Source: a virus (Duplodnaviria > Caudoviricetes). From it: a stretch of DNA of 25,290 nt. Below the pieces are notes generated by a model. That model did not search any database. It saw only the letters and a list, made by a program, of their open reading frames with translations, and was not told the DNA's origin. Shown piece after piece: positions 1,165 to 25,290 of this stretch; position 1 is the stretch's first letter; each line of letters opens with the position of its first letter. The translations under genes and the position numbers were made by a program. The stretch spans positions 1-25,290 of the IMG/VR virus record IMGVR_UViG_3300007992_000014; one strand, given 5' to 3'.

Positions 1165-3554
1165 TGAATATATATACTAACACCAATAGTGCTTTCCCTA
1201 GTCAAGTAGTGAGTGATGCAGAAAAAGCAAGTATTGAATACGGTAGTCAAGTAGCTATGGCTATTGAATACGAGTGGTTTCGCTCAGGAAGAACTGCTGG
1301 TAATAGATACTTAACTAATTGGAATAATTTTCATGATTTAAGGTTGTATGCTCGTGGAGAACAAAGTATACAAAAATACAAAGATGAATTATCTATAAAT
1401 GGTGATTTATCTTATTTAAATTTAGACTGGAAGCCAGTTCCAATATTATCTAAGTTTGTTGATATAGTTGTAAATGGTATATCCTCAAAAACATATGATA
1501 TAAAGGCATACGCTCAAGATCCTTCTTCTGTAAAGAAAAGAACAGAATACGCTTCTAAGCTACAAGAAGATATGGTTGCTAAAGAATTTTTAGATGGACT
1601 AAAGTCTACGCTAGGTATAGATTTATATCAAAGTCCAAACCCAGAAACAATACCTGAAACTCCAGAAGAATTAGAGTTACACATGCAACTTTCTTACAAG
1701 CAGTCTGTTGAAATAGCAGAAGAAGAAGCTATATCTACTGTTTTAGCTCAAAACAAATACGATTTAATAAGACGTAGAATAAACATGGATCTTACAACAA
1801 TAGGTATTGCTGCTAGTAAAACTAGCTTTAATATAGCCGAAGGTGTTACTGTTGACTATGTAGATCCAGCTTATATGGTTTATTCTTACACAGAAGATCC
1901 AAACTTTGAAAATATATATTACGCTGGTGAATTAAAATCTATAACAATACCTGAGCTTAAAAAAGAGTTTCCCAACATATCCAGTAAAGAACTGGAAAGA
2001 ATACAAAAAATGCCAGGCAACAGATCTTATGTTACTGGTTGGGGTGATTACGACGAAAACACTGTTCAAGTATTATATTTTGACTACAAAACGTATCACA
2101 ATCAAGTTTTTAAAATAAAACAAACTGATCAAGGTTTAATGAAAGCCTTAGAAAAACCAGACACGTTTAATCCACCGGAAAATGATAACTTTGAAAGAGT
2201 ATCTAGGTCTATTGAGGTTTTATATAGTGGAGCAAAAATATTAGGTACAGACACTATGTTAGAGTGGAAGTTGTCAGAAAACATGACTAGACCTCACGCT
2301 GATACAACTAGAGTAGAAATGAATTACGCTTTATGTGCACCTAGAATATATAAAGGTAGAATAGAATCTTTAGTAAGCAAGTGCGTAGGTTTTGCTGATA
2401 TGATACAATTGACTCATTTAAAGCTGCAACAAGTTTTATCTCGTATGGTGCCAGATGGTGTGTATTTAGATATGGACGGACTTGCAGAAGTTGATTTAGG
2501 TAATGGCACAAACTACAACCCTGCAGAAGCACTTAATATGTACTTTCAAACTGGTTCTATTGTAGGTAGATCTTTAACTCAAGAAGGTGAGTTCAACCAA
2601 GGTAAAGTACCTATACAAGAACTTAATAGCTCAAGTGGTCAAGCTAAAATAGCGGCGCTTATACAAACGTATCAGTATTATTTACAAATGATACGCGATG
2701 TAACCGGACTTAACGAAGCAAGGGATGGCACTACGCCAGATAAAGGAACTTTAGTAGGTTTGCAGAAAATGGCCGCTAACGCATCCAATGTAGCTACTAG
2801 ACATATAAAGCAGTCTAGTTTATATTTAACTCTTAGAATAGCAGAGAACATAGCCTTAAAACTAGCAGACGCACTGCAGTTTCCATTAACTAAAAACGCT
2901 TTACAAAACTCTATATCAACATATAACATAAAAACTTTAGAAGAAGTTGCTAGGTTAAATCTTCATGACTTTGGTATATTTTTAGAACTAGAGCCTGATG
3001 AAGAAGAACAAGCGAAATTAGAAGAAAATATACAAGTTGCTTTGCAGAAAGGTGGTATTGATTTAGAGGATGCTATAGACTTAAGGCAGATAAAAAACCT
3101 TAAATTAGCTAATCAAATGCTTAAAATTAAGCGTAAGAAAAAAGCTAAACAAGACCAAGCAGCTCAACAAGCAAACATAAAAGCACAGGCAGATGCTCAA
3201 GCAGAAACAGCAGAAAAAACAGCTATGGCTGAAGTGCAAAAGCAAGAAGCCATATCTGGATCTAACGTTCAGTTTGAGCAAGCTAAGTCTCAATTTGAAA
3301 TGCAAAGGATGCAAATTGCTGCTCAGATAAAGCAACAAGAAATGAAAATACAACATCAGTATGACTTAGAGCTTAAGCAGATGGATATTCAGCAAATACA
3401 ACAAAAAGAAGATAAAATAGAAAACCGTAAAGATCAAAGAACTAAAATACAGGCTACACAACAAAGTGAGATGATAAGTCAAAGGAATAATAAAACAGCT
3501 CCTATAGATTTTGAAGCCCCAAACACTGCTAAGCAGTTTCCAACAGTTTTATAA
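1164..3554 (+). CDS. Portal protein (796 aa) with a long Q/K/E-rich C-terminal coiled coil (P22-like barrel)
   Basis: Directly after terL and translationally coupled to it; size; portal-like segments (LDWKPVPILSKFVDIVVNG, IRDVTGLNEARDG); helical Q-rich C-terminus. Confidence 0.88.
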   Translation: MNIYTNTNSAFPSQVVSDAEKASIEYGSQVAMAIEYEWFRSGRTAGNRYLTNWNNFHDLRLYARGEQSIQKYKDELSINGDLSYLNLDWKPVPILSKFVDIVVNGISSKTYDIKAYAQDPSSVKKRTEYASKLQEDMVAKEFLDGLKSTLGIDLYQSPNPETIPETPEELELHMQLSYKQSVEIAEEEAISTVLAQNKYDLIRRRINMDLTTIGIAASKTSFNIAEGVTVDYVDPAYMVYSYTEDPNFENIYYAGELKSITIPELKKEFPNISSKELERIQKMPGNRSYVTGWGDYDENTVQVLYFDYKTYHNQVFKIKQTDQGLMKALEKPDTFNPPENDNFERVSRSIEVLYSGAKILGTDTMLEWKLSENMTRPHADTTRVEMNYALCAPRIYKGRIESLVSKCVGFADMIQLTHLKLQQVLSRMVPDGVYLDMDGLAEVDLGNGTNYNPAEALNMYFQTGSIVGRSLTQEGEFNQGKVPIQELNSSSGQAKIAALIQTYQYYLQMIRDVTGLNEARDGTTPDKGTLVGLQKMAANASNVATRHIKQSSLYLTLRIAENIALKLADALQFPLTKNALQNSISTYNIKTLEEVARLNLHDFGIFLELEPDEEEQAKLEENIQVALQKGGIDLEDAIDLRQIKNLKLANQMLKIKRKKKAKQDQAAQQANIKAQADAQAETAEKTAMAEVQKQEAISGSNVQFEQAKSQFEMQRMQIAAQIKQQEMKIQHQYDLELKQMDIQQIQQKEDKIENRKDQRTKIQATQQSEMISQRNNKTAPIDFEAPNTAKQFPTVL

Positions 3555-3585: not shown

Positions 3586-4779
3586 ATGTCAGAAGAAGTA
3601 AAAACAAATGAACCTGTTAAACAGGAAGGTGAGTTTAAATTAAAAAAGAAAACACCTAAAAAGTTTGCAAAAACAAGTAACGAACCTGTTAAAGTAAACG
3701 TCAAAGAACCTTTGGTTGAATTAGAATCAGAGATTAAAAAAGTAGTAATACCTAAAAAAGAAGAAGATGCCATTCAAGTCGGAGAAACAGAGGAAGTATC
3801 TGTGGAAGAACCATCCGGAGATAGCACAAAGGTGGGAGAACCTATACAAGAGTCCAACGAGGATGTTGAAGGGTTTTCTCCAATCAAAGAAGTCGAAGTA
3901 AAAGAGGTTGAACAAGAATTAGAAAAAGCTATACAAGAAGAAAAAATACTTGGAAAAGCTTTACCAGAAAACATTGAAAAACTAGTTTCTTTTATGGAAG
4001 AAACAGGTGGAACTATTGAAGATTACACAAGATTAAATGCTGATTATTCTTCAGTAGATGAAAATATATTATTAAAAGAGTATTATAAAAAATCTAAACC
4101 TCATTTAGATGATGAGGAAATAAACTTTATCATGGAAGATAATTTTTCATTTGATGAAGATATAGATGAACAGCGAGAAGTCCGTAAAAAGAAACTCGCA
4201 AAAAAAGAAGAAATTGCAAAAGCTAAAAACTTTTTAGAGGAAACGAAGAAAAAATATTACGACGAAATCAAGTTGAGACCCGGCGTTACTCAAGACCAAA
4301 AAAAAGCTACAGACTTTTTCAATAGATACAATAAGCAGCAAGAAAAAGCAGAGCAACAACACGCAAGGTTTAAAGAAGATACTAAACAACTGTGTAACAA
4401 CGAATTCGAAGGTTTCGATATAAAAGTTGGAGAAAAAAGTTATAAGTATAATATTCAAAATCGAGACAAAGTTGCAGAAAACCAATCAAGTATTAACAAC
4501 CTAGTCGGGAAGTTCCTAGACTCTGAAGGTAATGTTAAAGACACGAAAGGTTATCACAAAGCTATGTACGCCGCTGATAACGTAGATAAAATCGCCGCTC
4601 ATTTTTATGAACAAGGAAAAGCTGATGCCATTAAAGACGTTGTTAATAAATCAAAAAATCCAAGTGATTCTCTAGCTAGAAAGTCTCAAGGTGATGTGTT
4701 TATTAACGGTTTTAAAGTTAAAGCTATTAGTGGTGCAGATTCTACAAAACTTAAAATAAAAACAAAAAAATTTAACTAA
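3586..4779 (+). CDS. Probable capsid scaffolding protein (397 aa, very E/K-rich, helical)
   Basis: Between portal and major capsid genes; low-complexity acidic N-terminus, charged coiled coil and basic C-terminal tip (KLKIKTKKFN), as typical of scaffolds. Confidence 0.72.
   Translation: MSEEVKTNEPVKQEGEFKLKKKTPKKFAKTSNEPVKVNVKEPLVELESEIKKVVIPKKEEDAIQVGETEEVSVEEPSGDSTKVGEPIQESNEDVEGFSPIKEVEVKEVEQELEKAIQEEKILGKALPENIEKLVSFMEETGGTIEDYTRLNADYSSVDENILLKEYYKKSKPHLDDEEINFIMEDNFSFDEDIDEQREVRKKKLAKKEEIAKAKNFLEETKKKYYDEIKLRPGVTQDQKKATDFFNRYNKQQEKAEQQHARFKEDTKQLCNNEFEGFDIKVGEKSYKYNIQNRDKVAENQSSINNLVGKFLDSEGNVKDTKGYHKAMYAADNVDKIAAHFYEQGKADAIKDVVNKSKNPSDSLARKSQGDVFINGFKVKAISGADSTKLKIKTKKFN
3767..3901 (+). 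CDS. Overprinted 44-aa basic protein in the +1 frame of the scaffold gene: MPFKSEKQRKYLWKNHPEIAQRWENLYKSPTRMLKGFLQSKKSK
   Basis: ATG 3767 to TAA 3899-3901; A-rich leader with A at -3; resembles from memory a widespread small phage protein type (MPFKS..QR..(L/M)..N.PE.A..W); scaffold codon usage becomes G/C-ending across this stretch. Confidence 0.7.
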   Translation: MPFKSEKQRKYLWKNHPEIAQRWENLYKSPTRMLKGFLQSKKSK

Positions 4780-4795
4780 TTAAAAACTTAAAATT

Positions 4796-6271
4796 ATGAG
4801 TTTATCTCCACAATTCGGAGGGTTAATCCCTTCACAAGTTCAGGAGGTATTGAACAGCAACTACCTACAATTTAACGGTGGTGGTGGTGCTGGTGATACA
4901 AACACCTTTGCACAACAATACTTACCTGAAGTATACGAACAAGAAGTAGAGCGTTATGGAAACAGAACGTTATCTGGATTCTTAAGAATGGTTGGCGCTG
5001 AAATGCCAATGACATCTGATCAAGTAATTTGGTCTGAGCAAAATAGATTACACATCGCTTACACAGGCGTTGGTGTAGCTGTTGGACCAGGTGCTGGAAA
5101 TGACACAGCTATAACTTTACCAGCTGCACAAGCTAACGTTGTTTCTATTAACGATACAATTGTTATTTTAGATCCTGTAACTGGAGCTGAAGCTAAAGCT
5201 ATTGTACAAGATTCTGGTGCTTACACAGCTTCTGGACTTGGTGCTCAAGTTCTTACTGTACAAACTTTTGATAATGTAGCTCTTATCCCTGCAAACGGAT
5301 GGTCAGCTGCTTTAGATAAAAAAGTATTTGTATACGGTTCTGATTACAGAAAAGGAACTGATACTGTTCAAGGTAGCGTTACTGCTTTAAACCAAGGACG
5401 TATAAGTGTTGATCCTCAGCTTACACAATACTCTAACTCACCAATCATATTAAGAAGCCAGTACGTAGTATCTGGATCTGATATGGCTCAAATTGGATGG
5501 GTAGAAGTTGCAACTGAAGACGGAACATCTGGATACTTATGGTACTTAAAAGCTGAGTCTGAAACAAGACTACGTTTTGAAGATTACCTAGAAATGAGTA
5601 TGGTAGAAGCTGAATTTAACCAAGTTGGTGGTGCTGCAGGAGTTGCTGCAAGCCCAGGATCTGAAGGTTTATTTGCTGCTATCCAAGCTAGAGGTAACGT
5701 ACAATCAGGATTTACAGCTGCTGCTGGTCTTGATGAGTTCGATGCTATTCTTAAAAACTTAGACACTCAAGGTGCTATTGAAGAAAACATGCTTTTCTTA
5801 CAGAGACAAACTGCTCTTGATTTTGATGATATGCTAGCTAGCATCTCTGGTGGATACGCTGGAGGAACTGCTTTTGGTTTATTTGAAAATTCAGAAGAAA
5901 TGGCTCTTAACCTTGGATTCTCAGGATTCAGAAGAGGTTCTTACGATTTTTACAAAACTGATTGGAAATACTTAAATGACGCTTCTACACGTGGTGCTAT
6001 CAATGGTATTAATTCAATTGAAGGCGTATTAATTCCTGCTGGAACTTCAACAGTATATGATCAAATCTTAGGAACTAATATCCGTAGACCTTTCTTACAC
6101 GTACGTTATAGAGCTTCACAAGCTGACGACAGAAGAATGAAGTCTTGGTTAACTGGTTCTGCTGGTGGTGCATTTACTTCAACTCTTGATGCTATGGAAG
6201 TAAACTTCCTATCAGAAAGATGTTTAGTAACTCAAGCTGCTAACAACTTTGTATTATTCAAAGGAATCTAA
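4796..6271 (+). CDS. Major capsid protein (491 aa, probable HK97 fold with an insertion domain)
   Basis: Follows the scaffold; strongly biased codon usage (GCT, GGT, TAC, AAC, TTC) typical of highly expressed genes; size; followed by a GC-rich hairpin. Confidence 0.88.
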   Translation: MSLSPQFGGLIPSQVQEVLNSNYLQFNGGGGAGDTNTFAQQYLPEVYEQEVERYGNRTLSGFLRMVGAEMPMTSDQVIWSEQNRLHIAYTGVGVAVGPGAGNDTAITLPAAQANVVSINDTIVILDPVTGAEAKAIVQDSGAYTASGLGAQVLTVQTFDNVALIPANGWSAALDKKVFVYGSDYRKGTDTVQGSVTALNQGRISVDPQLTQYSNSPIILRSQYVVSGSDMAQIGWVEVATEDGTSGYLWYLKAESETRLRFEDYLEMSMVEAEFNQVGGAAGVAASPGSEGLFAAIQARGNVQSGFTAAAGLDEFDAILKNLDTQGAIEENMLFLQRQTALDFDDMLASISGGYAGGTAFGLFENSEEMALNLGFSGFRRGSYDFYKTDWKYLNDASTRGAINGINSIEGVLIPAGTSTVYDQILGTNIRRPFLHVRYRASQADDRRMKSWLTGSAGGAFTSTLDAMEVNFLSERCLVTQAANNFVLFKGI

Positions 6272-17680: not shown

Positions 17681-20600
17681 ATGAACGAATTAGAATTATT
17701 CACTGCTTCTCTTAAAGACTTAGGTTTATCTAAAGACGAAAGAATAAAGAGAATTAAAGAGTGGAAAATATCAAACAAACCTTTAGATGTTAAAGAGGAA
17801 AAACCAATAGACTTAAAAGTTGAAACTGAAATATCTAAAGAAATTAATAAAGATATAAACACTGTTAAACCAGCAAAGACAAATGTCTCTACAAGTGCGG
17901 ATCCAACTGTGGAGACAGAAAAAGATACGGGATCCAACTCGGAAGTTGCTTTATCGGGATTACCTATTGATCCTATTCCACCGGAACCAATATTTCCTTT
18001 TGCAGATGAAAACGCTGCACCTTTTGAATTCAACCAAACATACACAGCTCCACCTGGTGAAACTTTTGACTATGGCGATGGTGCTTATAAATATACGGTA
18101 GATCCAATAACCTTACAACCAATTTTTTACGCTAAAGCGTTAGGTTCGGATGAGTGGGTTGATACTACCGGTGATGGTTTAGCTACTATGTTGGTTGCAT
18201 CTAGATTAGGTTTTGTTGATGATTTTAATATTGATGATTATATACAAGCCGAAAAAGAAATACAAAAACAAGAACCTAAAAGTGAACTTGACCAACTCGA
18301 AGATGGTTTTGTTATGGAAGATGGTGATAATGTTGGGGACTTAGATGAGGTAGTTGTTTACGCGTTTAAAAAAGACGAAACAGCTGTAGAGAAAAAAATA
18401 AGACTAAACTACGAAAAATATCAAGAAGCAAGTGATGTTACTCTTAAAGAATATTTAGCTATTCAAAATGAAGTAGGTTTAATTAACTTAGACACTCAGG
18501 TAACAGAAACAGTAAAAGCTATTCCAAACTCTAACCTTAGCGGAATGGACTTGAAGATGGCTTATCGATCAGAAGGTACAACTGAAAATGTAACTACCAC
18601 TACGATTCCTTACGAAGAAGAAAGAAATATAGCTATTTCATTTTTACAAAGCCAAAGAGAAGAAACATCTAATGAGGATCCTATAACTGAAGCTGAAATA
18701 AGAGGTGTAACAAAACTGCAAATTGCAAGAGATAAATACACAGCTTTAAAAGATCAAAAAAATAGAGATTACTTAAGTGATATAAGTGACGAAGAAAGAA
18801 AACAAAACCATGATTACGCTCTTGGTATTGAAAGTACTTTTGATCCAGAAATTGAGGAAATCAAACTAGTAGAAGAGTTTGAATCTTTAAAAAATAGCGA
18901 TATAGTTAAAACTGTAAACTTAATGAGTGTTGAGTTACAAAGGGTTTATGAACAAATAAATACTTTAGGTGCAGAAATAAAAGAAAAACAAAAAATTGGT
19001 ATTAATTCTTTAGATGATCAAAATACGTATAATGCTTTAGCAGCTAGTTTTAATAAAAGATCTAATGTATTAAGCGCTGAAAGAAAAACAATACAACAGC
19101 AATTTGACTTAATTAATTATGATTACGCAGAGTTTATTGCTACTAACGAAGTAAAAAGCACTGCTGAAGAAAACTTAGATTACTTAAGAAGAAGTTATAG
19201 TTTATCAGAAAAATATTTTGGAAAACCATCTATGAGTGGAATTTCATTTGGCGGAGGTGGATTAGCGCCTGTTACATTTCCTAATGCCGTAGGGTTTTTT
19301 ACAGATAGTGAACTTGGTATGGAATTGCTTAACACCACCATGAGTTGGGCGCAAATAATACTTCAAACAGTAGCGACTGTTGAAGATAAAACTATAGCTG
19401 GTGCTGGAGTATTAGCACCAGGCTTGTTTATGTCTAAAACACTTGCTCAAGCATTAGGTGATGATTTTTTAGAAGCTCAAGCGGGTCTTAAAGACTTAAT
19501 TGAATTAAGAAAAAATAAATTCGTAAAAGATGTTAATTTTGGTAAAGGACCAAATGGATCTTTTTACTCATTTTCTAATTTTTTATATTTTCTTAGTCAA
19601 ACAGCTGTAGAACAACTGCCTTTTTTTGCTACTGTTGCTATACCAGGAGTTGGCCTTTATTTAGCCGCGTTATCAGCTGGTGGTGATTATTACGTTGATG
19701 AATTTAATAGAGCAAAGGCTAAAGGCGTTGAGTTTGATAGAGAAAAAACTTTAGCAAAATCTTTTGGCTTTGCGCTAGTTGAAGGTTTAGGTAGTGCTTT
19801 ACCTATGAAAATGCAATTCAAGTATATTCAAAACTTAAAACTTGATAAGCAAACTCTTGAATCAGGAGTAGGAGCTTTTTTTAGAGATGTAAGAAAAGCA
19901 GCTCCAGATTTCTTAAAATTAACCGCAGCAGATGTTGGTGGTGAAGTTTTAATTACTCAATTGTGGCAAAATGTTATATCCGGAAGACCTATGTACGAAG
20001 GTTTTGGTGAAGCTGGTTTTACGTCTTTAATATTCTCAACAAGTTTTACAGGAGTTCCAATAATAGCAGGAGCTTCAATGAGAGCTTTATCTGATCCTAC
20101 TACAAACGCAGAGTTTGATCAAAACGTTAGAGATATAGCTGAGTATCAAGAAATTATAGCTAAGAATGAAGGTGGACCAGAACTTGATATCAATACAAAA
20201 ATTTACTATAAAGGTCTTATAGATGATAAATTAAAAAGAAACGATGACATACTAAAAGAAAGAAGTAAATTAATAGATTTAAACCTAGACGCCACTGGTT
20301 GGAAGCTTTATGTCAACTCTATAAATAGACTTACTTATCTTAAAGAACAAGCTATATCACTTAGAGCAGAAGCTAAAAAACCTGGAATAACGATTGATGT
20401 ATCAAAACAAATAGCAGCGCTAGAACTTGAGTTTTCTATAACCAAATCAAACCTAGATGCTTACTTAGTAGCTTTCACTAAAAGGTTTGGATTGCTTTCT
20501 GTTTCTGTCCAAAACGATTTAAAAGATAGAGCTAAAGCAAAACTAAAATCAAAAGGTAATAACAATCCTTCTGATGCTCAACTACTTAATATAGCTGAAC

Positions 20601-23600
20601 AGTTGTACACTGAAGATACTATAAGAGATAATGCAGAAAATGATTTTGCTATGATATCTCTTTTACGTGGAAAAGGAATAAATATAAATTATAGTATATC
20701 AGATACTAATGCGGATGCTTTAGCGGCTTTCACAGAAATGGTTAACGCTAGAATAGCAGATCCAAATATCCAGTTTAGAGGTTCTAAAGTAGATCCTATA
20801 AGTAAAGAAGAAGCAGGTAAAAAAGAAATAGAAGACTTTAAAGCTGGGTTAAAAAACGGTACTGTAAACGGTGTTAATTTGATATCTATTAACGTAAAAA
20901 CAGGTCAACCAGTTTACGACTCTGTAGTTACTATAGAAAATGCTATATTAAATAATAATGGTAGAGTAGGTTTACACGAAGTAACTGGTCATGTTATTTT
21001 TACAGAAGCTTTAGGTACTAATCCAGCTGCTTTTAAATCTTTAGCTGGAACTATATTAACTTATCTTGCTGAATTTGATCCTAAAGCATATGTTAGAATA
21101 GCACGTAAAACCGAGGGCCAAGGTTTTGACGAAGTGTTAACTGTTTTCTTAGAAGAATTAGATAGAATTAATTTTGAAAAAGGTAAAGAGCAAGGTTTTT
21201 GGTCAACCTTAGGTATTGGATTTAATAAAGCAACATCTGAAGCTGTTGGCAAAGATTTTGATTATGACTTTAAAGGGGCTAAAGATGTAGTAGAGTTATT
21301 AAGACAAGTGGCTGAGGGATATAAAAACCAAACTCTAACACAGGATTCAATAGATCAAATAATAAATAGTGATGCTTGGCAAGGTAGTATTGAAGGTCAA
21401 TTAGATGACGGTAGCGTAGGCTTAGATGAGGTTTTACTTACAGGTTCTAAAAAATCAGAATCAATATCACCTGAAGGAGCTAAGTTTTTATCTGAGTGGA
21501 GAAAAGGTTTGTTCACTAATGAAGATCTAGTGTTAATGATTAGACAAGGAGCTGCAAAAGATAAATACCCAGCGGCTGAAGCTTTTGTTGAAGCAAATTT
21601 TGGAGTTATAAAACCAATAATAGGTTACGAAAGAAGAGGAACAAAAGGCATAGATGAAAACGGTGTAAAACAAGCTATAATAGAACTTATCATTGGTGGA
21701 GAAGGTGCTAAGTGGAGTGGCAAAACAACAGCGTTGTTTGAAGAAGGTGAAGGTTATAATCCTGATTTTGCTGTAACAACTTACATACGAAGACTAGGTG
21801 ATAGACGAGATAAAATATATGAAAGAGCTAAAGAACTTGGTGATACTGTATTTGATACTAACGAGTTAGATTCTACCTCAGAGGGTACTGTTGATATTGA
21901 AACAACACAGCCAACTGAACAAGCAACAACAATTGAAGTTGATCCCTTCAAGGTCATGAAAGATTCTAACGTTGATGCCATAGTAGCAGACGTTAAAGAA
22001 AAAATAGAATTATCAGAAATAGATTTAGACAACATAACTTTAAAAGATTTAAAACCTTTTGCAGAGGTTGCTGCTCAGCAAATAGCAGATCAAATAGGTA
22101 TACCTGTTTCACGTATATTAAATCCTAAGGACAATTTACGTAAAGGCGAAGTTACACCTATACAGATGTTTATAAAAAACAATGGCCCAGCTTTACTATC
22201 TATGTTAAAGCAGATAAAAGGTAATGCTGACATACAAGTTGTAAAAACTAAAAGCGGTACAAAGAAAATAGGTGGTGAAGGTAGGAAACTTGGTCAAAAA
22301 TTATTAGATGCTTTTTATATAAAAGGACCTAAAGTTAATAATCAAATACAATACAAGTTAGATCCTAGCAAGTTAAACTTACCTTATTTCTATTCTGTGT
22401 TTGGTATGGATTCGTCTGGTAATATAAAAGACGCTAGATCAGGAACAGCTCAAGCAACTAAAAACTTGATGGAGCTTTTGTCTAGACTTCAAACTTTAAA
22501 AGGAATTGAATTAGCAATTGATCAACAAATAGAAGAAGGCGCTACAACTGAGTCTGAGGGTAAAAGACAAAAAGTACAAGTAAAAAGATCTGAAAGTATT
22601 TCAGTGGAAAGAGACTTTAAAAAAGGAGTATTTGTAGTTCCTATTCCTGATCTAACGACGGTTGTAACTCAAAGAGTGAACAGTAAAGGAGAAACAGTTA
22701 AGGCTAGGAAAGTAGACTTAACAACTCCAGCTGGTATAAAAATAATAAATGATTTAAAAGGTTTTTTTGAACTACATCCTGAGCAAGCTTATTTATTTAG
22801 ATCAGGTATGACAGGTGGGTTTGGTTTTACATTTACAGACACACCTACTTTTGATAAAATATTTCCTGGGTTAGAAACTACAGGTGATTTAACTAGACAG
22901 AAGTATACTGTAATTGGTGGATATCAAAATGGTGCAGCAATAACAAAGTTAGTAGAAGACCCTGATTTAATAAAAAAGAAACAAGACCTGCTAAAAGATT
23001 TATTTTTAAACATACAAAGTTATATTAAGAAAAATCCAGACTCTGCTTCAACTTTTTCGTTATGGCAAATGGAATCTAGTAAAGACCAAAATCATCCAAT
23101 AAGATTTTTAGCACCAACTGTTTTTTATGCTATAGATCCTTTTACAAAGCGAATAAAATTAGATGTAAAAGTGACAGAAGAGCACATGATGCCTAATGTT
23201 CAGGCTGGAAAATCACTTTTAGACGCGGCTATAAAAGGTAAAGTTGAAAGTGAGTTTGATAATATTATATCCAAGTCTTATGGTCAAGGTGGTCTTAGAT
23301 ATTTAAACGATTTAGCGTTAGAGCAATTTGGATTATTAGATAGACTACCTAAAAGTTATTACGATTTAGTTGTACCGCTTTTAGAAGCTGGAAAATTAGA
23401 TTTTTTACCTGCTGGTATGGCGTCTTGGATAAGATACAGTGAAAACAATGTAGCTAATCCTTTTGAATATAGTCTTATTAAGCCTAATATAACGATAGGT
23501 GAATTATTTGTTGGTAAACTAACAGGATTAGATGGGTTGAAAGGAGCTGATTTCCAAGTTGGAATTGACATGGCAGGCATGAAAGCTAATGGTTTAATAA

Positions 23601-25290
23601 CTAGAGTTCTTACAGGTGACATGACAGTTGAAGCTGCTAAAGCAGAGTTTAAAGTTTATCAAAGATTATTAAAAGATAAGGTAGCTTCTTTTAACAGCAA
23701 TAACGTTAATTTTGGTTCTAAAACAAAACTAAGTCAAAGCATATCAGGTCAAATAGAAATACTAAATAACTATGACACAGCTTTAGAAATGTCTAGGAGA
23801 ATAAATCCTCCGGTTATGGGTATATCTGTATTAGATTTTGATGACACTGTAGGTATAACAAGTAGTAAGATAGGTGTTACAATGCCTGATGGAACTTTTA
23901 AAAAGATAGACGCTACTGAGTTTGCTTTAGAACATACTAACTTAGAAGATATAGGTGCTACTTTTGATTTTTCTGAATTTAACAAAGTTATAGGAGGAAA
24001 ACGAGGACCGTTATTTGGTAAGTTGAAAAGAGCTGTAGAAAAATATGGAAATAAAAATGTATTTATATTAACAGCTAGACCTGCTGGAGCTGCACCAGCA
24101 ATATATGCTTGGTTAAAATCAGAGGGCGTAACTTTAATAGAAGGAAACATAGTAGGTTTAGCGAATGGAGCTCCACAAGCCAAAGCTAACTGGATAGTTA
24201 GTAAAGCAGCTGAAGGTTATAATGATTTTTATTTTGCTGATGACGCTATTAAAAATGCACAAGCGGTTAAAGCTGTTTTAGATGTATTAGATATAAAGTC
24301 TGAAGTTCAAATAGCTAAACAAAGCAAGTCAATTGTTTTTACCTCTATAATAAACGATATTATAGAACAAAAAACTGGCATAGAAGCTTATAAGCAATAT
24401 TCCGCTGCTAAAGCTCAAACAATAGGAGCTAGTAAGGGTAAGTATAATTTCTACATACCTCCTTCTGCTGAGGATTTTACAGGATTACTATATAAGTTAT
24501 TAGCAAAAGGAGCTGTAGGAGATGCTCAAATGGCTTTCTTTAAAGATAATTTACTTGATCCATACAATAGAGCTGAAATTCAAATTGGAAAAGCAAAAGT
24601 TTCAGCTGGTGCAGATTTTAAAGCGCTTAAAGCTAAGTTTCCTAAATTACCTAAAAGTTTTAAAAAACAAACAGGTGTAGGTAGATTTAACTATGAACAC
24701 GCTATTAGAGTTTATTTATGGGATTCACAAGGGATGACAGTTCCTGGTTTATCTAAGGCAGATCAAAAACAATTAGTTGATTTTATTAAGGCTGATCCTG
24801 ATTTAAAAGTTTTTAGTGATGAATTAATAACTATACAAAAAGGTAAACCTTACCCTAAACCAGGCAAAAGCTGGGTTGCTGGGACTATAACAACAGATGT
24901 TATAAGTGGAATTAATAAAATAAACAGGGCTCAATACTTACAAGAGTGGCAGCAAAATGTAGATATTATATTTGCACCTGCTGTATTAAATAAATTAGAA
25001 GCCGCGTTTGGGCCTGCTTATGTTAAAGCTTTGAAAAACTCTATTCAAGCTCAAAAAATAGGTAGCAATAGAACCTCTGCCGCTGATTCTATTACAACAA
25101 GATGGTATGATTGGATAAACAACTCGGTAGGTGTTGTAATGTTTTTAAATACTAGATCAGCATTAATGCAAATGATATCTAATGTAAACTTTATAAATTG
25201 GAGTGATAATAATCCTATAAAGGCAGCTAAAGCATTTGCTAACCAGCCTCAGTACTGGAAAGATGTAATGTTTTTGTTAAACTCTCCATA
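17681..25290 (+). CDS. Giant multidomain internal virion / ejection (polyvalent) protein, at least 2536 aa, 3'-truncated by the window
   Basis: ATG at 17681 (MNELELFTASLKDLGLSKDERIK...), 5 nt after the upstream stop; the frame reads open to the window end (...YWKDVMFLLNSP). Absent from the ORF track because there is no stop. Third gene of the ejection cluster. Confidence 0.9.
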   Translation, partial: MNELELFTASLKDLGLSKDERIKRIKEWKISNKPLDVKEEKPIDLKVETEISKEINKDINTVKPAKTNVSTSADPTVETEKDTGSNSEVALSGLPIDPIPPEPIFPFADENAAPFEFNQTYTAPPGETFDYGDGAYKYTVDPITLQPIFYAKALGSDEWVDTTGDGLATMLVASRLGFVDDFNIDDYIQAEKEIQKQEPKSELDQLEDGFVMEDGDNVGDLDEVVVYAFKKDETAVEKKIRLNYEKYQEASDVTLKEYLAIQNEVGLINLDTQVTETVKAIPNSNLSGMDLKMAYRSEGTTENVTTTTIPYEEERNIAISFLQSQREETSNEDPITEAEIRGVTKLQIARDKYTALKDQKNRDYLSDISDEERKQNHDYALGIESTFDPEIEEIKLVEEFESLKNSDIVKTVNLMSVELQRVYEQINTLGAEIKEKQKIGINSLDDQNTYNALAASFNKRSNVLSAERKTIQQQFDLINYDYAEFIATNEVKSTAEENLDYLRRSYSLSEKYFGKPSMSGISFGGGGLAPVTFPNAVGFFTDSELGMELLNTTMSWAQIILQTVATVEDKTIAGAGVLAPGLFMSKTLAQALGDDFLEAQAGLKDLIELRKNKFVKDVNFGKGPNGSFYSFSNFLYFLSQTAVEQLPFFATVAIPGVGLYLAALSAGGDYYVDEFNRAKAKGVEFDREKTLAKSFGFALVEGLGSALPMKMQFKYIQNLKLDKQTLESGVGAFFRDVRKAAPDFLKLTAADVGGEVLITQLWQNVISGRPMYEGFGEAGFTSLIFSTSFTGVPIIAGASMRALSDPTTNAEFDQNVRDIAEYQEIIAKNEGGPELDINTKIYYKGLIDDKLKRNDDILKERSKLIDLNLDATGWKLYVNSINRLTYLKEQAISLRAEAKKPGITIDVSKQIAALELEFSITKSNLDAYLVAFTKRFGLLSVSVQNDLKDRAKAKLKSKGNNNPSDAQLLNIAEQLYTEDTIRDNAENDFAMISLLRGKGININYSISDTNADALAAFTEMVNARIADPNIQFRGSKVDPISKEEAGKKEIEDFKAGLKNGTVNGVNLISINVKTGQPVYDSVVTIENAILNNNGRVGLHEVTGHVIFTEALGTNPAAFKSLAGTILTYLAEFDPKAYVRIARKTEGQGFDEVLTVFLEELDRINFEKGKEQGFWSTLGIGFNKATSEAVGKDFDYDFKGAKDVVELLRQVAEGYKNQTLTQDSIDQIINSDAWQGSIEGQLDDGSVGLDEVLLTGSKKSESISPEGAKFLSEWRKGLFTNEDLVLMIRQGAAKDKYPAAEAFVEANFGVIKPIIGYERRGTKGIDENGVKQAIIELIIGGEGAKWSGKTTALFEEGEGYNPDFAVTTYIRRLGDRRDKIYERAKELGDTVFDTNELDSTSEGTVDIETTQPTEQATTIEVDPFKVMKDSNVDAIVADVKEKIELSEIDLDNITLKDLKPFAEVAAQQIADQIGIPVSRILNPKDNLRKGEVTPIQMFIKNNGPALLSMLKQIKGNADIQVVKTKSGTKKIGGEGRKLGQKLLDAFYIKGPKVNNQIQYKLDPSKLNLPYFYSVFGMDSSGNIKDARSGTAQATKNLMELLSRLQTLKGIELAIDQQIEEGATTESEGKRQKVQVKRSESISVERDFKKGVFVVPIPDLTTVVTQRVNSKGETVKARKVDLTTPAGIKIINDLKGFFELHPEQAYLFRSGMTGGFGFTFTDTPTFDKIFPGLETTGDLTRQKYTVIGGYQNGAAITKLVEDPDLIKKKQDLLKDLFLNIQSYIKKNPDSASTFSLWQMESSKDQNHPIRFLAPTVFYAIDPFTKRIKLDVKVTEEHMMPNVQAGKSLLDAAIKGKVESEFDNIISKSYGQGGLRYLNDLALEQFGLLDRLPKSYYDLVVPLLEAGKLDFLPAGMASWIRYSENNVANPFEYSLIKPNITIGELFVGKLTGLDGLKGADFQVGIDMAGMKANGLITRVLTGDMTVEAAKAEFKVYQRLLKDKVASFNSNNVNFGSKTKLSQSISGQIEILNNYDTALEMSRRINPPVMGISVLDFDDTVGITSSKIGVTMPDGTFKKIDATEFALEHTNLEDIGATFDFSEFNKVIGGKRGPLFGKLKRAVEKYGNKNVFILTARPAGAAPAIYAWLKSEGVTLIEGNIVGLANGAPQAKANWIVSKAAEGYNDFYFADDAIKNAQAVKAVLDVLDIKSEVQIAKQSKSIVFTSIINDIIEQKTGIEAYKQYSAAKAQTIGASKGKYNFYIPPSAEDFTGLLYKLLAKGAVGDAQMAFFKDNLLDPYNRAEIQIGKAKVSAGADFKALKAKFPKLPKSFKKQTGVGRFNYEHAIRVYLWDSQGMTVPGLSKADQKQLVDFIKADPDLKVFSDELITIQKGKPYPKPGKSWVAGTITTDVISGINKINRAQYLQEWQQNVDIIFAPAVLNKLEAAFGPAYVKALKNSIQAQKIGSNRTSAADSITTRWYDWINNSVGVVMFLNTRSALMQMISNVNFINWSDNNPIKAAKAFANQPQYWKDVMFLLNSP
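17873..17939 (+). promoter_or_regulatory. Candidate -1 programmed ribosomal frameshift signal (in-frame GCA_AAG, 5-nt spacer, H-type pseudoknot)
   Basis: Stem 1: TGTCTCTACA (17884-17893) with TGTGGAGACA (17908-17917). Loop GGATCC (17899-17904) can pair with GGATCC (17930-17935) across an A-rich 12-nt linker. Confidence 0.45.
20850..21340 (+). other. Zincin-like metallopeptidase domain within the giant protein (boundaries approximate)
   Basis: GLHEVTGHVIF (HEVTGH at 20975-20992) preceded by beta-strand-like segments and followed by DEVLTVFLEE (21128-21157), a candidate third-ligand helix. Confidence 0.7.
21515..22120 (+). other. Sigma-70-like module (region 2-like segment plus helix-turn-helix) within the giant protein
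   Basis: TNEDLVLMIRQG...AAEAFVEANFGVI...YNPDFAVTTYI resembles sigma regions 1.2/2.1-2.3; QQIADQIGIPVSRI (22076-22117) resembles a sigma region 3/4 HTH. Confidence 0.55.
23090..23460 (+). other. HNH / His-Me-finger-like nuclease domain within the giant protein (boundaries approximate)
   Basis: VTEEHMMP (EHxxP at 23180-23194), then a strand-helix YGQGGLRYLNDLAL, then LLDRLP and a terminal WIRY (23426-23437). Confidence 0.5.
23810..24316 (+). other. HAD-superfamily phosphatase domain within the giant protein
   Basis: All four HAD motifs in order: ISVLDFDDT (DxD, 23834-23848), FILTAR (24062-24079), Lys at 24182 and FYFADD..KN (DD at 24239-24244). Confidence 0.88.

Follow-up and report, generated by a model that had tools for sequence, protein, structure and literature searches.

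The stretch of DNA analyzed here, hereafter the window, is the whole of IMG/VR record IMGVR_UViG_3300007992_000014 (25,290 bases, by estimate ∼40% of a phage genome). All large open reading frames (ORFs) of the window are on the + strand, and the last large gene of its virion block is a giant ORF (17681..25288, +), which is open at its 3′ end and encodes 2536 amino acids (aa) within the window. The full-length form of this protein, P0002, has 2937 aa and is 100% identical over aa 1240-1660. The subject of this report is a helical domain in the middle of the giant protein that resembles region 2 of sigma-70 factors (sigma-2), and occupies aa 1274-1386 (21500..21838, +, 113 residues). It is followed by an acidic, Thr-rich linker that is predicted to be disordered (21845..21934, +, aa 1389-1418) and by a compact alpha/beta domain, delimited from AlphaFold2 models, with no known PDB fold match (21935..22588, +, ∼aa 1419-1636).

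The sigma-2-like domain and its surroundings

The initial annotation of this locus had proposed a sigma-like region-2 domain embedded in the giant protein that ends the virion gene block, and the fold and profile matches described below bear this out. The three motifs on which the proposal was built are all present in ORF 17681-25288 at the positions claimed, namely TNEDLVLMIRQG at aa 1279-1290 (window 21515-21550), YNPDFAVTTYI at aa 1359-1369 (window 21755-21787), and QQIADQIGIPVSRI at aa 1466-1479 (window 22076-22117). The first two both fall within the helical domain of aa 1274-1386. The acidic linker described between the second and third motifs is real, and so is the insertion that had been suspected in region 2.2, which in a 16-sequence alignment of the family (A2) lengthens the stretch from the 2.2 helix to YNP by ∼20 residues in the window's clade.

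Structure prediction carries much of the argument. An AlphaFold2 model of aa 1254-1660, built on 12 sequences, has a mean predicted local distance difference test score (pLDDT) of 72.1 and consists of a helical domain at model residues 11-133 (pLDDT of 63-88 in blocks of 10 residues), a disordered stretch with pLDDT <50 at residues 136-165 (aa 1389-1418), and a second structured part. When this model was run through VIA-align against 48,161 PDB representatives, the best row was region 2 of Escherichia coli sigmaE (PDB 2mao, Z 6.4, 92 aligned residues, root-mean-square deviation 5.7), followed by SigK (Z 5.5), CnrH (5.4), Rhodobacter sphaeroides SigE (5.2), and AlgU (4.9), then by Staphylococcus aureus SigB (4.6) and SigC region 2 (4.5), with WhiG, BldN, SigI6, ShbA, SigA domain 2, chain F of the gp45-dependent activation complex of T4 (7d7d_F, Z 3.8), and sigmaS in lower rows. 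Among the top 16 rows, 13 are named sigma factors and two belong to initiation complexes; Rap1a is the one unrelated entry. A second look, restricted to Foldseek's 879 best chains, gave sigma or holoenzyme chains in 36 of the top 37 rows (sigmaE 1or7_B at Z 5.5), the sole other row being RidL at rank 22. All sigma alignments are confined to model residues 1-145, those with full-length sigma chains included, and the weak Foldseek rows obtained with the whole 407-aa model also included sigmaH, SigI6, sigmaB, and sigmaE chains. Because the Z values lie below the level that is safe for a helical bundle on its own, the fold argument rests on the family-specificity of the match list and not on the scores. 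The helical fold of sigma-2 is thus recovered on a predicted model and at modest Z.

The second line of evidence is a profile comparison. The hhalign target was a seven-sequence sigma alignment made of six E. coli sigma factors and the free sigma factor of G001, the complete phage genome nearest to the window. With a 126-sequence family alignment as the query, hhalign returned a P value of 1.8e-4 and a probability of 48% over 86 columns. The aligned stretch begins at ‘GD..AF..L’ (regions 1.2/2.1) and stays in register through ‘DLIQEG..G...A...FDP..G..FSTYA..I’. When the sigma alignment was reversed, the same query scored P 0.83. The lowest P among 30 column shuffles was 0.28 and that among 30 block shuffles 0.058, and none of the 61 control alignments reached the P value of the true one. 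Smaller queries aligned over shorter stretches, with P 0.0011 and 66 columns for eight distant sequences and P 0.0048 and 29 columns, over regions 2.2-2.3, for alignment A2. With fold matches almost only to sigma-2 and a P value that the controls do not approach, the resemblance to region 2 is above chance; the profile similarity in the 2.1-2.4 register was obtained with a sigma profile of seven sequences.

The Pfam model of sigma-70 region 2 (PF04542) matched one member of the family, below its cut-off of 24 bits. In record G008, a 2204-aa frame is matched at 19.6 bits (E 1.5e-5 per record) over HMM (hidden Markov model) positions 24-65, the matched stretch being EDFKSEFMNKMIQHIRNFDPSKNDSLEGWINSQISNKVKQVL, which in alignment A2 pairs with the window's IDENGVKQAIIELI...YNPDFAVTTYIRRLGDRRDKIYE. 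Distant members resemble region 2 more plainly than the window does, as illustrated by ‘...GILDLIQEYKPESNVPLAAYINKFLPARTIEASRR’, ‘FMNKMIQHIRNFDPSKNDSLEGWINSQ’, and ‘LLDKFNPRINDNWSTYAGSQL’. A loose signature (a hydrophobic residue, D or N, P, a few residues, then (S/T)-T-Y) is present in 100 of the 126 family sequences, and after the FDP-like turn one aromatic residue (Y or W) is kept in the groups of A2. As a lead only, an Atlas feature search with aa 1261-1515 retrieved viral clusters named ‘sigma-70 region 2 domain-containing’ and ‘gp112 family’ at a score of 0.89, PF04542 being found on 13% of the ‘gp112 family’ cluster members. Sequence comparison taken by itself gives the sigma-2 assignment weak support. 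In combination with the predicted fold, we consider it probable that aa 1274-1386 form a true sigma-2 fold of common descent, and the domain probably both descends from sigma-2 and works like it.

The part of the interval that follows the linker tells a different story from the one first proposed. The third motif had been read as the start of sigma region 4 through its similarity to ‘EIA..LGIS..RV’, and here the position was correct but the meaning found no support. Modeled alone (AlphaFold2, 17 sequences), aa 1415-1651 fold into a single compact alpha/beta domain of ∼220 residues with a pLDDT of 83.2 and a predicted TM-score of 0.82, and ∼aa 1419-1636 are the best conserved part of the annotated interval. 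QQIADQIGIPVSRI opens IPVSRI-x2-P-x-DNLRKG, the most conserved motif of the interval in the corresponding 17-sequence alignment (A3), where the invariant or nearly invariant columns are I60, P61, V62, S63, R64, I65, P68, D70, N71, L72, R73, K74, and G75; the nearly invariant family motif IPVSRILNPKDNLRKG lies at aa 1474-1489 (22100..22147, +). After the ‘GIP’ turn, the modeled helix is four residues long and runs into a conserved Pro, unlike the long recognition helix of sigma-4. The region-4 models PF04545 and PF08281 had no match at E≤10 in five records, the window included. Foldseek against the PDB gave no match at E≤0.001 for aa 1415-1651, and VIA-align peaked at Z 3.6 (T7 Ocr and a designed repeat), none of its 50 rows standing out as a sigma factor or helix-turn-helix regulator. 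The candidate helix-turn-helix of sigma-4 at QQIADQIGIPVSRI, and with it the region-4 reading, is accordingly not supported. Regions 3 and 4 were not found, and the motif that had suggested a fuller sigma factor is part of an unrelated-looking domain. What lies in the giant protein appears to be a sigma-2 module and not a whole sigma factor.

The alpha/beta domain itself had no usable match in the Atlas. In BFVD it had one (E 4e-5, TM-score 0.64), to a 1017-aa segment of a large protein that is labeled UDP-N-acetylglucosamine kinase and comes from another uncultured virus. This predicted similarity suggests that the domain may recur as a module in giant phage proteins. A profile search against PDB sequences gave a single match, to lactate dehydrogenase (E 0.0038) over the DNLRKG stretch, which was set aside as chance.

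Relatives, other modules, and the phage lineage

A word-indexed search retrieved 27 related proteins at E≤0.001, mostly of 2100-3000 aa, and scans of IMG/VR gave 23 loci. Over the region, the relatives fall into two groups that are 63-100% and 27-36% identical to the window. Only aa ∼1278-1650 and aa ∼1730-2870 are alignable between the two groups, which makes the annotated interval one of the two stretches that are conserved in this rapidly evolving protein. When the A2 profile was searched against 1.84 billion representatives (clusters at 50% identity), 113 cluster representatives were found at E≤0.001, nine of them at ≤1e-10. In this set, 83 proteins have at least 1000 aa, with the domain typically at residues 700-1400, and 30 are shorter. 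One short hit (P0079, 171 aa) carries a UvrB/UvrC motif (E 4e-7) and another (P0121, 349 aa) an IS1595-type transposase domain (E 3.5e-8); judging from these two sequences, the sigma-2-like module may also occur outside giant proteins. A homologue search with the sigma-2 alignment among proteins of 62-228 aa yielded three fragments, all belonging to this family; none of the hits was a free sigma factor. In a relative on a 34-kb contig, the giant gene is broken (L012:10001-11168, with 25 stops in one frame of the matched stretch) and its protein is in the database as two pieces of 1491 aa (P0019) and 1440 aa (P0020), which is a frameshift or an assembly error.

Several other features of the giant protein were recorded. 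Its only strongly hydrophobic, transmembrane-like segment is at aa 646-666 (19616..19678, +), with a Kyte-Doolittle mean of 1.66 over 19 residues on P0002. At aa 1099-1104 (20975..20992, +), the window has HEVTGH, an HExxxH string, at the site where relatives carry an HExxH zincin-type motif. The canonical motif is present at a similar position in seven of eight relatives' giant ORFs and the HExxxH form in the window's clade, where, from the motif itself, the zincin-type site may be altered or inactive. In the conserved C-terminal half, a HAD-phosphatase-like domain at aa 2043-2214 (23807..24322, +) has the DxDxT motif LDFDDT together with ILTARP and FADD motifs and is matched by PHROG 415, a polynucleotide kinase family, at E 0.0031. 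A DFDYD string at window 21248-21262 (aa ∼1190-1194) fits the DFDxD pattern of RNA polymerase active sites; this pattern was present in just one of eight relatives' giant ORFs and was taken as chance. We also considered whether the giant ORF could be a crAss-type virion RNA polymerase and rejected this candidate, as DFDxD is not conserved, LDFDDT is a HAD motif, and phmmer of P0001 against PDB sequences, which include the phi14:2 polymerase entry, gave no match at E≤1.

From its start to its end, the window encodes the 3′ part of the large terminase, the portal, capsid and ring-type virion proteins, and then two proteins with Crassvirus muzzle domains (PF25731 at E 3e-14 and PF25729 at E 7e-8). 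After these, there are two unannotated genes and then the giant ORF, which closes the virion block. The nearest portal among GenBank phages is that of an uncultured 60.9-kb podovirus (49.8% identity), followed by Flavobacterium elemo phages (40%) and by Cellulophaga and Tenacibaculum phages (26-36%). The phage is a roughly 60-kb, distantly crAss-like relative of Flavobacteriia phages. A giant gene also closes the virion block in portal-related cultured phages: elemoE gp18 of a Flavobacterium phage (3694 aa, annotated ‘structural protein’), gp101 of the Cellulophaga phage phi40:1 (1691 aa, annotated as a structural protein verified by tandem mass spectrometry proteomics), and the syntenic giant gp127 of phi13:2 (1990 aa). 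The family HMMs scored at most 3.3 bits on the giants of elemoE, phi40:1, phi13:2, and MW202828, meaning that similarity at the sequence level was undetectable, and a tblastn search of GenBank phages with two segments of the window's protein, aa 1201-1700 and aa 1774-2536, retrieved neither a match nor a cultured carrier. The giant ORF was also tried as an orthologue of phi14:2 gp65, which could not be shown, the family HMMs reaching at most 3.5 bits on gp65-gp69. From gene position, synteny, and the one transmembrane-like segment, we infer that the giant protein is packaged; by analogy with these phages, it is likely a virion cargo or ejection protein.

The transcription machinery of the lineage was assessed in G001, which is 63,259 bp long and has a direct terminal repeat of 509 bp. 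Its giant protein (2959 aa) is ∼68% identical to that of the window over the region and is the only ORF of G001 longer than 1700 aa. A PHROG scan covered 47 of the 65 ORFs of G001; the virion-block ORFs were omitted, their counterparts in the window having been scanned. The scan matched a ligase, Erf and an exonuclease, a primase/helicase, ThyX, MazG, and ribonucleotide reductase, along with lysis genes, GroES/GroEL, and tail fibers; RNA polymerase was found in none of the 47 ORFs and DNA polymerase likewise in none. The arm of replication genes encodes an ordinary-looking free sigma factor of 253 aa (L026:1396-2157, record 4465-5226, +) that matches phrog_351, ‘RNA polymerase sigma factor’, at E 5.8e-19 and PF04542 at 22.2 bits (24.4 bits with its neighbors) and has, by eye, a region-4-like tail. 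Eight relatives have no second giant ORF after the giant gene and no conserved DFDxD motif. Because no polymerase was seen in the scanned ORFs of G001, DFDxD is not conserved, and there is no match to the phi14:2 proteins, the lineage apparently depends on the host polymerase throughout.

The right end of G001 holds a gene-poor stretch of 3.3 kb beside the terminal repeat with five copies of the sequence repeat TTACAAACAAAATA-N9-10-AACAGATAATATAA(T), at L037:169-227, 368-426, 804-862, 1427-1485, and 2472-2530. By sequence, the five copies resemble early promoters that share an element similar to TATAAT. In the window, the motif shows no enrichment, with six matches at two mismatches as compared to 2.84 expected. 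Two copies of a GTTCGATTC-type string resembling a tRNA T-arm (L037:786-810 and 3215-3239) suggest that tRNA genes may be located at this genome end.

Possible roles of the domain

Our current working hypothesis, which we hold tentatively and at somewhat less than even confidence, is that the diverged sigma-2 domain of the giant protein (aa 1274-1386), after ejection, docks to the clamp helices of the host polymerase and likely steers or tethers this enzyme to the incoming genome. The giant protein would be packed in the virion, like the syntenic giants of phi40:1 and phi14:2 and the large cargo proteins of crAss001, and would be ejected ahead of or with the DNA. Its hydrophobic N-terminal third would help to form a conduit, the C-terminal two thirds would get into the cytoplasm, and the upstream zincin-type site may cut the chain and release the module, as has been proposed for polyvalent proteins and for phi14:2 gp65. 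The sigma-2 module would then bind the beta-prime clamp helices of the host core polymerase, as sigma-2 and T4 gp55 do, and would act prior to any phage gene expression. Binding to the host RNA polymerase is here put forward by analogy with these proteins. The initial annotation had raised early transcription, DNA entry coupled to transcription, and competition with the host's primary sigma as functions that such a module could serve.

A number of results weigh against this hypothesis. PF04542 had no match in the six frames of the window at E≤10; of the 11 records searched with it, 10 had none in their giant ORFs, and the match in G008 is below the 24-bit Pfam gathering cut-off. Pfam searched by hmmscan with P0001 and with the 369-aa region at E≤0.1 returned no family, and PHROGs returned no sigma. 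No sigma family was found by Pfam on eight full-length family members at E≤10 or, at E≤0.05, on any of the 42 profile hits (out of 113) that were scanned, and NCBIfam TIGR02937 (sigma70-ECF, regions 2 plus 4) had no match at E≤10 in five records. The hhalign comparison was not significant with the window's clade alone (P 0.32) or against the single phage sigma. With respect to the structure, both AlphaFold2 models are predictions from shallow alignments (12 sequences for that of aa 1254-1660), a Foldseek search with all 407 aa of this model returned no match at E≤0.001, and no Z exceeds 6.4, a level at which helical bundles may share a mere common arrangement. Just one aromatic of the melting set of region 2.3 is kept, the Trp pair of primary sigma factors being absent, and the window's clade has its insertion in region 2.2. 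Extracytoplasmic function (ECF) sigma factors also have fewer of the region-2.3/2.4 aromatics than primary sigma factors. Since no sigma-4 was found, reading of a promoter −35 element is not expected. Finally, core-polymerase binding and packaging of the giant protein, on which the hypothesis depends, we both infer by analogy.

Next to the initiating or tethering role, two other roles deserve weight, each of which we regard as unlikely and to the same degree. In the first, the sigma-2 module would occupy the beta-prime clamp helices, or hold the polymerase at the entry site, and thereby block the host sigma and shut off host transcription, and it would not itself start phage transcription. The fold and profile evidence serves such a decoy equally well. 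The lack of a detected sigma-4 and the poor conservation of the region-2.3 aromatics fit a binder better than a promoter opener, and the lineage already has a complete free sigma factor for its own promoters. A decoy would, however, probably be present in few copies per virion against thousands of host polymerases, if one may judge from crAss001, for which ∼6 copies of each large cargo protein are estimated in PMC10172136, and its binding to the polymerase would be as much a matter of analogy as in the preferred hypothesis.

In the second, a true descendant of sigma-2 would have been reused, for instance to grip single-stranded or entering DNA or another phage protein, with no contact to RNA polymerase. 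The extreme divergence, to which Pfam is blind in 10 of 11 records, would fit such an exaptation, as would the insertion at the 2.2 helix in the window's clade, the constant fusion of the domain to a second conserved domain of unassigned fold, and the company of other unrelated modules (HAD-like and zincin-like) in the same protein. Against it, the stretch best matched by both Pfam and hhalign is exactly 2.2-2.4, the part that binds core polymerase and reads the −10 element, which argues that the core-binding surface is what selection keeps.

A further explanation, which we find quite improbable, is that an ordinary four-helix arrangement in a mostly helical giant has come to look like sigma-2 without common descent from sigma factors. 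The ceiling on Z, the empty Foldseek result, the lack of any Pfam match above its cut-off, and an hhalign probability of just 48% leave room for such convergence. It sits poorly with a match list that is nearly pure sigma factors (36 of 37 rows) where a mixture of helical bundles would be expected, with a correct hhalign register over 86 columns that no control comes near, and with the Pfam region-2 model picking the homologous stretch in G008. Lastly, a nearly complete embedded sigma (regions 2, 3, and 4) that reads two-part promoters is very improbable, for the visual resemblance of QQIADQIGIPVSRI to the start of a sigma-4 helix-turn-helix is countered by the silence of PF04545 and PF08281, the failure of full-length sigma chains to align past model residue 145, the location of the motif inside a 220-residue alpha/beta domain whose best PDB matches are unrelated proteins, and a helix after the turn of four residues that ends at an invariant Pro.

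If the docking hypothesis is extended to the lineage, one arrives at a broader and more doubtful proposal, in which a crAss-related, Flavobacteriia-type lineage gave up the virion RNA polymerase and instead delivers, from the virion, a sigma module that captures the core enzyme of the host where the DNA enters. The captured host polymerase would start the first phage transcripts, or pull them in, before phage gene expression. Phages are known to begin early transcription from promoters served by the host holoenzyme, with an injected RNA polymerase of their own (N4 and crAss-like phages), or by way of injected enzymes through which the host polymerase is modified (T4 Alt). A particle-borne module of the sigma type that docks on polymerase would add a fourth route and, if true, be the first injected sigma-like factor. 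It would also account for one portion of the very large, unannotated cargo proteins that this widespread phage group encodes (113 clusters at 50% identity). A search of the literature, with subscription journals outside its coverage, turned up no description of sigma factors carried in virions or of sigma domains within virion or ejection proteins.

Comparison with known systems

The closest likeness is to the sigma-2 domain of the sigma-70 family (regions 1.2 and 2.1-2.4; PF04542), especially that of the ECF factor sigmaE (PDB 2mao and 1or7). The predicted fold is the same, regions 2.1-2.4 are in the same register, and the signature after the 2.2 helix is common to both. Sigma-70 factors are free proteins of 170-600 aa, whereas the module described here consists of 113 residues in the middle of a 2937-aa protein, has no sigma-3 or sigma-4 that we could find, falls below the Pfam cut-off, and, in the window's clade, is enlarged by ∼20 inserted residues in region 2.2.

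The architecture of the giant protein is reminiscent of the polyvalent proteins (Iyer et al. 2017, PMC5512222), which are very large proteins delivered with DNA in which unrelated modules are strung together and which are thought to be processed at a zincin-type site. The abstract of that paper names jump-starting transcription as a theme, and the word ‘sigma’ occurs 0 times in its main text. The LPD domains named there were not detected by Pfam in the giant protein or in the family members scanned. In the giant protein, the zincin-type site reads HExxH in seven of eight relatives and HExxxH in the window, a HAD-like module is matched at E 0.003, and delivery would be expected from gene position and synteny.

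A phage protein reduced to a sigma-2-like domain has a precedent in T4 gp55 (PDB 7d7d), whose chain 7d7d_F is in the fold list. According to PMC7892883, the sigma-2-like domain of gp55 suffices to bind the clamp helices and to recognize a −10-like element. For its part, gp55 is a free 185-aa protein that is made post-infection and works with gp33 and the sliding clamp, whereas the module here is in a giant that is likely carried by the virion.

Virion-delivered transcription proteins are described for phi14:2 gp66 and its neighbors gp65 and gp67 (10.1101/2020.03.07.982082) and for crAss001 gp47/49/50 (PMC10172136). The genes for these proteins and for the N4 virion RNA polymerase are giant cargo genes that follow the tail or muzzle genes, which is the position of the giant gene in the window, and their products enter the cell along with the DNA and start early transcription. 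The contrast lies in the enzyme: those phages inject a virion RNA polymerase, which in the phi14:2 gp66 type is a two-barrel enzyme with a conserved catalytic DFDxD motif. No polymerase was recognized here, and the phage described in this report would instead borrow the polymerase of its host.

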